From a virus (Duplodnaviria; Heunggongvirae; Uroviricota; Caudoviricetes): a DNA stretch of 48,167 nt. Location: positions 1-48,167 of IMG/VR virus record IMGVR_UViG_2861053794_000003. One strand, 5' to 3'. Shown piece after piece: positions 30,001 to 33,000 of the stretch. Position numbers: made by a program. How positions within the stretch are numbered: the first letter of the stretch is position 1; every line of letters starts with the position of its first letter.

Positions 30001-33000
30001 GGGGCTGACATACGCATTTGCTTTCATCATTAATATGGCGCCGGGTGCCTCCCAGTGCTCCATAACTGATTAATATGGAACGCGGTTTCATTCAGTTGCA
30101 TTCATGAATAACACTCTAATCAGTCCGCCCCGCCGCTTAGGGGGATTCGCCATATAAATTGAAAGTACTGAACACATCTGTCACAAACAATATGCAATTG
30201 TATGAATTGTGAGATTATTATCAATAACACAAAATTATAGCTCTAGTACATAAACAGCAGATTAAACAAGAACAACAAAAGTTTTGAATTGCACGGTGCC
30301 GGGTGCCTCCCGGTGAATTCTGCAATGACCAGACAGAATCCGCAACTTGCTACTAACGCTAATGCGACTAAGCCTAACAGTCATTATGCCCCTCCGCACA
30401 GGGGGATTCACCATGCGCTAAAAAAATACAAAACATCACGTCCCTCTGACAATACGAAGCACCATAAAATGTGAGTTATTTATCAATTCTTAATTCTGGT
30501 TACAGGAATATTCCGAATCAAATCTTTAAAAAAAGAAATTCAAATGCATGGTGCCGGGTGCCTCCCGGTGAACAGACCGTCCGTGATACCAGTCGGCAAC
30601 ACAGGAAATTAATGGTATCACCCCACCGCACAGGGGGATTCACCATGCAGGCGTTTTCTTAGCAAACTAACTGCGCGCCCGGCAACTCCCAACCATATAA
30701 AACGTGGAGTTTGTAGCATTTATGCACATAACTCACAGGAGTTATCTTAAAAAAAGCTGACAATGCTTCCCCGGCAACGCAATAACTTTATCCCCTGAAG
30801 TGGCATCCCCCGTATTATCGACAAGCTCAAAAAGGAGCCAGTCATCTGAGGATGACTGGAAAAAGGAAAGATAAAAAATTATTCATCATACAACCTTCGT
30901 TGCAGGGGAGAATCCTGCGGTGCAGCAACATACAAAAACATAAGCCAACTAACAATATGCAGGCATAGCATTTTCGGATTTTGTTATATGGCACGATAAC
31001 TGAATGCTTACCTGATATACAGTCCGGTATAAAGTTGCAAAAAACCGCCAGTTAAGGCGGCATTCAAACAGACAACAGGATTTTTTCGTAATTTTAACAA
31101 CGTCGGGGTGGCGCATCGTCAGTCCCTGTCAGGAAGTACCAGAACTCCCACCAACAATGCCCCACCCCATTCAGCGTTATAAAACACGGCACAGGAACTA
31201 TCAATGTTTTCTGTTACAGTTCGGGAAAAACGATAAACACGCCACGGGCTCTTTTTGCTGTGAATTAAAAACGGTCCTGAAAGCCAGCTCATCATTTTTT
31301 TACTGGACCGTCACCGGGGACTCGAACCCCGCACTCTCAACATAAAAGGTTGATGCTCTTTCCTGATGAGCTAGTGACGGCATGGTGGCCCTTGCTGGAT
31401 TTGAACCAGCGACCTGGCGGTTATGAGCCGCTCGCTCTCACCACTGAGCTAAAGGGCCGGAATGCAGAATAATAATCACGGGGATTTAATTCTGCAATAT
31501 CAGTAACCATTACTGATTAAATTCAGAACTTCCCTGGCCGTTTGCTCAAAACGTTCAGCTTCCAGTTCAACACCAATTGCATGACGCCCAAGCGCCATAG
31601 CGGCTTTTATGATTGAGCCCGACCCCATAAAGAAATCCGCCACCATGTCACCAGGACGGCTGCTCGCACAAATTATCTGCCGCAGCATCTCCGCCGGTTT
31701 TTCACAGGGGTGTTTACCCGGGTAAAACTGGACCGGCTTGTGCGTCCACACATCGGTATATGGCACCTGCGCCGTCACGCCAAAATACCGCCGCAGATGC
31801 TTATATTCACACTGCAGTTCCGCATACTGCCGGTTCAGTGAGGTATACGCGGCAACCAGCTGGTGGTGGGGTTTTTCCAGTTCACCGCGTTGATGCTTTT
31901 CTTCTGCCACCCGGGCAAACAACGCCTGTAATTTCAGATAATCGCGTTCATTCGGTAACTGCCACTGACTGGTACTGAACCAGTGCGACACCATGTTTTT
32001 CTTTCCTGTGGCATCAGCAATCTGTTTTGCCGTTATCCCCAGAGCGGCACGCGCATCACGAAAGTAAGATATCAGCGGGGCCATCACATGCTGTTTCAGT
32101 GCCCTGCCCTTCGCCTCATAGCCATCATCTTTTGGGCGATACGGTCCCTGATAATGTTCCGCAAACAGAATGCGCTCTGTGGCCGGGAAATACGCACGCA
32201 GGCTTTCCTTGTTGCACCCGTTCCAGCGTCCGGATGGCTTCGCCCAGATGATATGGTTCAGCACATTAAAGCGTTCACGCATCATGATTTCGATGTCAGA
32301 CGCCAGGCGATGGCCACAGAACAGGTAAAGACTTCCGGTAGGTTTCAGCACCCGCCAGAACTGCGCCAGACACTGGTCCAGCCACTTCAGGTAATCTTCA
32401 TCACCCGCCCACTGGTTATCCCAGCTCTCAGGTTTCACTTTAAAGTACGGCGGGTCCGTGACTATCAGATCAACAGAATTTTCGGGTAACGACCGGATAA
32501 ATTCCAGGCAGTCGGCGTTGATTAACTCACAACTGGATATTTTTACAGTATTAAACATGGATCATTAAGCCTGTCTCTGATAGGCTCATTCTGCTTTTGC
32601 GCAAAGCAGTGGGCCTGAGGTTTGCTTGTGATCCCAATGCATGAGCAGATGGCTGGTGAGCGCCCCTAACACCCACCAGCCGCCCATTTACCACAAATAA
32701 AAAAGCCTTCACTGTGGAAGGTGTCTGTAACAACCAAACTGATAGTCTGCCAGACCCGCCATAACAAGCTGGGTCAGTATTAACTGGCAGCGTTCGCGTG
32801 AAAGGTATGTGTTCTGCGCAATCTCCCCGACTGTCGCCGGTTCGGTGACGCTCAATTCATTAAACACCACTCTGGCGGTTTCTGTCATATCCTGCTGTTT
32901 CTGCATGTCTTTTTCCCTTTTCCGGTTAACGTGACACACCAATAGCTCTTGTCGAAAAAGCCAGCAAGCTGAAAGACCGGTATTAATAACCACCTGCACA

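Follow-up and report, generated by a model that had tools for sequence, protein, structure and literature searches.

In the IMG/VR virus record IMGVR_UViG_2861053794_000003 (Caudoviricetes), of which positions 1 to 48,167 were analyzed (this whole stretch of 48,167 nucleotides [nt] is called the window), a tRNA gene with a UUU anticodon lies at positions 31304 to 31380 on the minus strand, just downstream of a tRNA gene with a CAU anticodon. The UUU gene is a genuine tRNA gene of a lambdoid prophage. Judged by its sequence, it is the gene of the argN slot in the ileZ-argN-argO set of Shiga toxin (Stx) phages with its anticodon switched and not a foreign addition to that set. Under published identity rules, lysine is its most likely amino acid, and as the best reading, which we hold tentatively, we propose that it is a lysine-accepting spare tRNA predicted to be insensitive to defense nucleases directed against tRNA-Lys. 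The naming of the two genes as tRNA-Ile and tRNA-Lys is already public, in the annotation of Escherichia coli 95-3322 by the Prokaryotic Genome Annotation Pipeline (PGAP); what sequence comparison appears to add here is the derivation from the argN scaffold by an anticodon switch, the lack of a codon-usage rationale, and the finding that the cleavage determinants mapped for PARIS and Old are missing. No published account of this tRNA or of its link to argN was found in a literature collection, itself incomplete, that was searched for ileZ/argN/argO and for prophage tRNA-Lys.

Exactly two tRNA genes were called by ARAGORN in the whole 48-kb window, both on the minus strand. The UUU gene is 77 nt long including an encoded CCA, has the full minus-strand sequence CCGUCACUAGCUCAUCAGGAAAGAGCAUCAACCUUUUAUGUUGAGAGUGCGGGGUUCGAGUCCCCGGUGACGGUCCA, and is supported by ARAGORN, Rfam RF00005, its minimum-free-energy (MFE) fold, PGAP, and covariation. 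By segment, it reads CCGUCAC UA GCUC AUCAGGAAA GAGC A UCAAC CUUUUAU GUUGA GAGUG CGGGG UUCGAGU CCCCG GUGACGG U CCA. The acceptor stem is formed by C1-G72, C2-G71, G3-C70, U4-A69, C5-G68, A6-U67, and C7-G66 and is followed by discriminator U73 and the encoded CCA; the D loop (AUCAGGAAA) has C16, G18G19, and A20; the anticodon stem consists of U27-A43, C28-G42, A29-U41, A30-U40, and C31-G39; and the 7-nt anticodon loop is C32 U33 U34 U35 U36 A37 U38. The anticodon itself (U34 U35 U36; linear position 35 in ARAGORN) occupies positions 31344 to 31346, where the plus strand reads AAA. The T arm is canonical. The RF00005 score was 53.2 bits (E value of 9.9e-9 for a search of the whole window), where the gathering score is 29, and all conserved nucleotides of that family are present (U8, A14, G18G19, A21, U33, and G53 U54 U55 C56 A58 C61). 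The MFE structure is a perfect cloverleaf with stems of 7, 4, 5, and 5 bp at -27 kcal/mol (z = -2.2 relative to shuffled sequences). PGAP calls the identical sequence in E. coli 95-3322 tRNA-Lys, adjoining tRNA-Ile. An initial annotation, made from the sequence alone, had described a UUU anticodon in a CUUUUAU loop, a C1-G72 start, a discriminator U, and a good cloverleaf, and it had read all of these correctly; ARAGORN returned the anticodon ttt, and neither another anticodon nor a pseudogene was called. Its 2-nt spacer between the tRNAs was also borne out by the ARAGORN coordinates, at positions 31381 to 31382 of the minus strand; it reads UG in the RNA sense and follows directly on the CCA of the CAU tRNA, with C1 of the UUU tRNA next. 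Plus-strand features at the site are artifacts, being only subthreshold Rfam Plastid-ycf2 matches (18.9 to 32 bits, with a gathering score of 65.7) that are antisense images of the tRNAs.

The kinship with argN is seen in both position and body. In Stx-converting and other lambdoid phages (933W, VT2-Sakai, and Stx2a_F349), argN encodes a tRNA-Arg with a UCG anticodon and lies 1 to 2 nt after ileZ, between Q and the lysis/toxin genes. The UUU gene has this slot as it is defined for the cluster (1 to 7 nt after ileZ, from Q to the lysis/toxin genes, same strand) and aligns with argN over its full length, sharing C1-G72, C2-G71, U73, the encoded CCA, the D arm with A20, and the T arm. Identity was 60 to 61 of 77 nt (77.9 to 79.2%) to the two UCG argN alleles compared and 76.6 to 79.2% across annotated argN database hits. 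The differences are UUU in place of UCG, U38 in place of A38, A30-U40 in place of G30-C40, and G3-C70, C7-G66, and G51-C63 where argN has G3.U70, U7.G66, and A51/C63. No argO (UCU) follows the UUU gene, and the window has no third tRNA. The pair had initially been set apart from the ileZ-argN-argO set; that view stands as far as the different anticodon and the missing argO are concerned, but the CAU gene is ileZ and the UUU gene is an argN homologue in the argN slot. By descent, as far as sequence can tell, the tRNA thus belongs to the lambdoid ileZ-argN cluster even though it lacks the UCG anticodon. In the argN of Stx2a_F349 (L002:3079-3155), the G3.U70 wobble is the major alanine identity element and A51/C63 is a T-stem mismatch; the window allele has G3-C70 and G51-C63 at these places.

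Three anticodons occur on this scaffold across the loci fetched: UCG (the argN form), UCU (L004, L130, L133, and L135), and UUU. The UCU allele of locus L130 (E. coli 377323_2f) is annotated as tRNA-Arg and reads AGA and AGG, codons that the phage overuses; another UCU allele is that of IMG/VR locus L004. The L130 allele has the same array position as the window allele and identical acceptor, D, anticodon, and T stems, and its 7 differences all fall in loops (C35 versus U35, A38 versus U38, and five others). Outside the anticodon loop, the window allele has 5 differences from the Arg(UCU) form and 4 to 5 from a Lys form with C33 that is described below. Arrays of the type Ile2-Arg(UCU)-Thr(UGU)-Gly(UCC) (L130) and Ile2-Lys(UUU)-Thr(UGU)-Gly(UCC) (L129 and L131) differ only in slot 2. 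These alignments show that a single transition, C35 to U, would convert the UCU form found on these stems, and in this array, into the UUU form. Across 21 distinct scaffold alleles, 95.7% of the pair cells of the cloverleaf are paired, compared to 29 to 53% (maximum, 52.6%) with slid partners, and five pairs change on both sides (e.g., C4-G69/U4-A69 and G30-C40/A30-U40). Taken at the level of sequence, the scaffold is a constrained phage tRNA family whose anticodon appears to have been switched between Arg and Lys.

Scaffold homologues were present in 2,044 of 5,426 complete E. coli genomes and in 279 phage records, and among representatives of 185,579 species, the 3'-end motif of the scaffold was confined to Escherichia and Shigella (E. 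coli and Shigella flexneri). UUU alleles were found in hundreds of the complete E. coli genomes as well as in temperate phage isolates, and slot 2 carried UUU in 90 of 93 arrays of a sample drawn with a pattern from the 3' end of the window gene. Copies of the exact window allele are few (12 E. coli records with at least 99% identity, several of them mouse isolates, including strains 8178 and DEF10, and 2 metagenome contigs) and always form an Ile2-Lys pair; with an 18-nt pattern of the anticodon arm, there were 39 hits in metagenomes and 3 in viruses, of which only L152 and L180 are the window tRNA and the rest are chance matches. A more distant scaffold relative, CCGCCAC...GGUGGCGG G CCA, lies downstream of Q in Yersinia phage YeP1 (L139:601-678), where it bears the annotation "tRNA-Pseudo-TTG" and precedes Met(CAU) and Gly(UCC) tRNAs.

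Capture of a host tRNA-Lys gene was rejected as the origin: only 49 of 77 nt are identical to the host gene, whereas related arrays carry a Thr(UGU) gene that matches host thrU exactly. With E. coli tRNA-Lys(UUU) of the lysT family, the window tRNA shares UUU, C32, U33, A37, the encoded CCA, and the canonical D- and T-loop nucleotides; it differs in having C1-G72, U73, C16, and U38 where the host has G1-C72, A73, U16, and A38, and its anticodon stem is wholly different. The Thr(UGU) gene of the widespread four-tRNA arrays (L129:680-755; 93 arrays, IMG/VR loci) is 100% identical to the single-copy thrU of the host, for which 5,420 of 5,426 genomes had a match, at a median of one place per genome; the Gly(UCC) gene appears to match host glyT. 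Such arrays therefore seem, from sequence, to mix host-captured genes with phage-scaffold genes.

What amino acid the UUU tRNA carries was judged from published identity rules. E. coli lysyl-tRNA synthetase (LysRS) reads all three anticodon bases and A73, replacement of A73 lowers lysine acceptance, E. coli arginyl-tRNA synthetase (ArgRS) relies mainly on A20 and C35, together with U or G at position 36 and A or G (or U) at position 73, and in other systems a UUU transplant is enough for lysine identity (PMC9976931). The window tRNA has U34, U35, and U36 of the Lys set, with U73 in place of A73. Of the Arg set, it keeps A20, U36, and U73 and has U35 in place of C35, so the C35-to-U change removes the main anticodon determinant of ArgRS and supplies the main one of LysRS. 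From the Gly set it has U73, C2-G71, and G3-C70 and lacks G1-C72, C35, and C36, and from the Pro set (G72 with A73, G35, and G36) it has G72 only. Lysine is most likely on these rules, and lysine charging may be of reduced efficiency or somewhat ambiguous. The initial annotation had called the charging uncertain, which was a fair caveat, as the tRNA has three of the four LysRS determinants, U73 in place of A73, and still A20, an ArgRS determinant.

Codon demand offers no reason for an additional tRNA-Lys. Late genes of the prophage (7,437 codons, leaving out three coding sequences whose coordinates are indel shifted relative to the 95-3322 record) were compared with a host sample of 35 genes (11,925 codons). 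Lysine codons (AAA plus AAG) numbered 46.4 per 1,000 in the late set and 47.5 in the host sample, a ratio of about 1, with late/host ratios of 0.87 for AAA and 1.27 for AAG and an AAG share of lysine codons of 0.34 and 0.26, respectively. Other codons were clearly enriched (late and host values per 1,000): AUA (6.5 and 2.0; ratio, 3.2), AGA (5.1 and 0.9; ratio, 5.5), AGG (4.3 and 0.8; ratio, 5.1), ACA (11.2 and 3.6; ratio, 3.1), and GGA (12.4 and 6.5; ratio, 1.9). These explain the Ile2, Arg(UCU), Thr(UGU), and Gly(UCC) tRNAs. Of the two kinds of codon singled out initially for such a comparison, AUA was thus enriched and the lysine codons were not. Host tRNA-Lys(UUU) genes were found in 5,425 of 5,426 genomes, at a median of 6 copies, and supply of lysine codons was rejected as the function of the UUU tRNA because demand is not raised in the late genes and the host is well provided.

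With no extra demand for lysine codons, about six host genes, and a body unrelated to host tRNA-Lys, the value of the gene would most likely lie in its being a spare. We hypothesize that the UUU tRNA would be excised from the late transcript by RNase P and 3' trimming, that LysRS would charge it, probably less efficiently than the host tRNA owing to U73, and that it would decode AAA and AAG. Should an abortive-infection nuclease destroy host tRNA-Lys(UUU), the spare would survive and would keep late protein synthesis going; candidate nucleases are those of the Lys-specific PrrC/RloC type, AriB of PARIS, and P2 Old, for which Lys is a secondary target. Abortive-infection nucleases favor host tRNA-Lys(UUU), PrrC and RloC among them, and phage tRNA-Lys(UUU) genes rescue infection from PARIS and PrrC170. 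AriB cuts E. coli tRNA-Lys at U36AAUC/A41 (the slash marks the cut), and cleavage is abolished by U39 to A and impaired by A41 to C or U16 to C (PMC12409363). At these positions the window tRNA has C16 and U36 A37 U38 G39 U40 U41, where the host has U16 and A38 U39 C40/A41. P2 Old restricts lambda itself and has Thr(UGU) as its prime target; it cleaves on the 3' side of C and requires paired CNG motifs at positions 28 to 30 and 40 to 42 (PMC12445682). In the window tRNA these positions read CAA/UUG, and the 3' strand of its anticodon stem is free of C; argN, in contrast, has CAG/CUG. In the 21-allele alignment all UUU alleles have A30-U40 and most Arg alleles have G30-C40, so the cut motif of the Toprim nucleases is removed in the UUU alleles. 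The window tRNA thus lacks every mapped AriB and Old determinant, and insensitivity to both is what its sequence predicts. It combines two features by which counter-defense tRNAs are recognized, the anticodon of a host tRNA that nucleases target and substitutions at the mapped AriB and Old positions. No support was obtained for a role against HepS of Gifsy-1, which senses lambdoid J proteins but whose tRNA targets are Thr, Ile(GAU), and Ser and do not include Lys.

The nearest functional parallel is the tRNA-Lys(UUU) of phage T5, which likewise is phage encoded, has the anticodon of the host target, C16, and altered positions 39 to 41, and lacks the AriB site U36AAUC/A41. The T5 tRNA is a recognizable relative of host tRNA-Lys with few escape changes (G1-C72, A73, and loop CUUUUAA), while the window tRNA is an Arg scaffold with C1-G72, U73, and U38; T5 is virulent and carries 20 or more tRNAs, while the window is a temperate lambdoid prophage with two; and PARIS resistance and rescue by the T5 tRNA have been shown by experiment, while the window tRNA is known here from sequence. 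The SP15 tRNA-Lys, also phage encoded and with UUU, rescues from PrrC170. If the hypothesis holds, the window tRNA would act in the manner of the T5 tRNA, by analogy and without kinship to it.

Several observations weigh against a nuclease-insensitive spare. U73 replaces a LysRS determinant, and A20, the main ArgRS determinant, is kept. The scissile site of PrrC lies in the loop, between positions 33 and 34, and the anticodon loops of the window and host tRNAs differ only at position 38, so resistance to PrrC cannot be predicted. With PARIS B185, a resistant tRNA-Lys alone is often not enough and a resistant Thr(UGU) tRNA is needed as well; the prophage has no Thr tRNA, and the one in related arrays has the cleavable host sequence. 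A Lys-specific nuclease of the PrrC/RloC type fits better than PARIS. All copies of the window allele (12 records and 2 contigs) are identical, so selection is not measurable on them. Other Lys alleles look weakly constrained: some have U8C, a D-stem deletion, or an 8-nt loop, CUUUUUAU, and several, the one with the D-stem deletion included, have no PGAP annotation. In the array sample drawn with the 3'-end pattern of the window gene, Lys is also the most variable of the four array genes, with a mean of 0.80 differences from the major allele, compared to 0.20 to 0.54 for the others.

These last two points fit weak constraint and therefore speak for the most serious competitor, which we consider somewhat unlikely: that a rare-codon tRNA-Arg (UCU/UCG, supplying AGA/AGG/CGA) became, through C35 to U, either an additional harmless tRNA-Lys or a tRNA with poor charging and now hitchhikes, without conferring an advantage, in successful prophage lineages. 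UCU and UUU are a single transition apart on the same stems, AGA and AGG are the most enriched phage codons, so the Arg form is sensible and the Lys form looks like a loss, and U73 is suboptimal for LysRS. Many Lys alleles, moreover, are damaged or odd. The commonest Lys(UUU) allele of the scaffold (L126 and L129:601-677; about 90 IMG/VR loci) has the loop CCUUUAA, with C33 in place of the near-universal U33, and PGAP still calls it tRNA-Lys; since PrrC cuts between positions 33 and 34, C33 may serve in escape or may simply be a defect. The nearest relatives of the window allele (L140:689-766, from mouse E. coli M18, and L094) have the 8-nt loop CUUUUUAU with an extra U, for which ARAGORN reports "tttt"; this is either inactivating homopolymer slippage or a potential +1 frameshifting tRNA. 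Against neutrality, UUU is the majority form of slot 2, with the frequency and distribution given above for a sample picked by the 3' end of this gene; alleles that differ in loops and stems keep the anticodon; the window allele is canonical throughout, with U33, perfect stems, and all conserved tertiary nucleotides; and the A30-U40 pair that removes the Toprim-nuclease motif is present in every UUU allele.

A spare tRNA that accepts lysine has also to be set against charging that is partly or mainly noncognate, which would insert Arg (or Gly) at AAA/AAG codons during late expression and which we regard as improbable. The retained A20 is the main E. coli ArgRS determinant, U73 is among the bacterial Arg determinants, and U73, C2-G71, and G3-C70 also belong to the bacterial Gly identity set; replacement of A73 lowers lysine acceptance (PMC9976931). 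But C35, the major ArgRS anticodon determinant, is absent, as are C35, C36, and G1-C72, which glycyl-tRNA synthetase requires, and all three LysRS anticodon bases are present, a transplant of which suffices for lysine identity elsewhere. A proteome-wide change of Lys to Arg or Gly, furthermore, would probably be deleterious. A bolder form of the idea, and to our minds a long shot, takes the hybrid make-up (Arg scaffold with A20, U36, and U73; Gly-like acceptor pairs; Lys anticodon without A73) to mean at least partial Arg (or Gly) charging and a deliberate or tolerated mistranslation of AAA/AAG when the late operon is on, with the 8-nt-loop relatives (CUUUUUAU) acting as +1 frameshifters at A-rich sites. 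Mischarging and altered decoding had both been raised in the initial annotation; the determinants (no A73, A20 kept) make them possible, and no result points positively to either.

It is very unlikely that the UUU tRNA tunes translation, either by altering late decoding of AAA/AAG (e.g., the G:GT ratio through a -1 slip at G GGA AAG) or by boosting supply in the late burst: the slippery heptamer G GGA AAG is present in frame at positions 13491 to 13497 of the minus strand, at the end of gpG (13473 to 13901), AAG has the slightly higher late share given above, and related arrays carry Gly(UCC), the P-site tRNA of the heptamer, but lambda frameshifts correctly on host tRNAs alone, lysine demand is not raised over about six host gene copies, GGGAAAG is no commoner in the window than expected by chance, and the array Thr(UGU) (the exact thrU copy) and Gly(UCC) (which appears to match host glyT) both read rare codons, which explains their presence. 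The heptamer itself is the lambda-type -1 frameshift site that makes the G-T tail chaperone, and its A-site AAG is read by tRNA-Lys(UUU).

The gene lies in a prophage that can be described by comparison with E. coli 95-3322. From position 1116 on, the window is 99.9% identical to a prophage of that strain, with four small indels that leave three tail-gene coordinates of the 95-3322 record frame shifted relative to the window. Positions 1 to 1115 do not align to E. coli 95-3322, which carries IS100 there. PGAP annotates the 95-3322 prophage as a complete lambdoid prophage with int, xis, an exonuclease, a RacR-type immunity region, replication genes, RusA, Q, lysis genes, terminase, head and tail genes, and J. 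Along the minus strand, Q is followed by two small genes, an N6/N4 DNA methylase, the two tRNAs, four copies of STnc100, a SASA/DUF1737 esterase, and holin and lysozyme, and the initial annotation was right in placing the tRNAs on the late strand, the one common to Q, the methylase, the esterase, holin, and lysozyme. The late antiterminator gene Q (34048 to 34713, minus strand; PGAP annotation of the 99.9% identical prophage) has the tRNAs downstream on the same strand, and the N6/N4 DNA methyltransferase gene (31500 to 32558, minus strand; Pfam PF01555, E value of 1.3e-43; PGAP) stops 41 nt short of the CAU tRNA. A search for a sigma-70-like promoter immediately ahead of the tRNAs gave none, so a Q-dependent late promoter is their likely source, and from synteny with Stx phages they are probably part of the Q-dependent late transcript. 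Among the neighbors, which are the DNA methylase, the SASA/DUF1737 esterase, and proteins without a Pfam match, no nuclease or defense gene that would need a self-immunity tRNA was found beside the tRNAs. An attP or integration-site remnant was rejected for the UUU gene, which is full length with CCA and is located about 16 kb from int, with Q on one side and the lysis genes on the other.

The CAU gene (31383 to 31458, minus strand; ARAGORN; Rfam, 71.8 bits) had been taken initially for an Ile2-like tRNA gene, in agreement with its present identification as an ileZ homologue of Ile2 type and with the tRNA-Ile call of PGAP. It is identical to ileZ of Stx2a_F349 in 74 of 76 nt, and the two changes form one compensatory pair. 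It has C4-G69, C5-G68, and C29-G41, acceptor- and anticodon-stem features of Ile and not of Met in the identity table of PMC9976931.

The gap between the tRNAs and the SASA esterase gene is filled by four tandem copies of the small RNA STnc100 (RF02076; 29563 to 30678, minus strand; 131.9, 103.6, 96.6, and 76.6 bits), two of which end in strong intrinsic terminators; STnc100 is a known prophage small RNA related to PasD (bioRxiv 10.64898/2026.05.13.724894). At window positions carried over from the 99.9% identical 95-3322 record, the cargo of the prophage includes a gene for an OmpC-type porin among the tail genes (about 8747 to 9910, with small indel shifts within 6558 to 9910), a Hok/Gef toxin adjoining J (about 2508 to 2648), and a ParD-RelE/ParE toxin-antitoxin pair in the early region (about 36547 to 37109).

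The tRNA genes of phages have long been explained by codon supply. Recent work has shown that virulent phages such as T5 survive tRNA-cutting defenses (PARIS, PrrC, retron-Eco7, and P2 Old) with variant tRNAs. If the window tRNA is indeed nuclease proof, counter-defense of this kind would also exist in temperate prophages of the lambdoid and Stx types, whose tRNA genes number only two to four, and it would have been reached by a different route, with a phage tRNA-Arg scaffold retargeted by a single anticodon change and not with a mutated copy of host tRNA-Lys. The classical ileZ-argN-argO genes beside stx, usually read as rare-codon helpers, would then merit a second look, and one small gene together with known nucleases would make a simple, testable system. 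If the gene is instead a neutral mutant, it would be a clean natural case of anticodon switching between Arg and Lys decoders and a warning against reading function from the annotation of prophage tRNAs.

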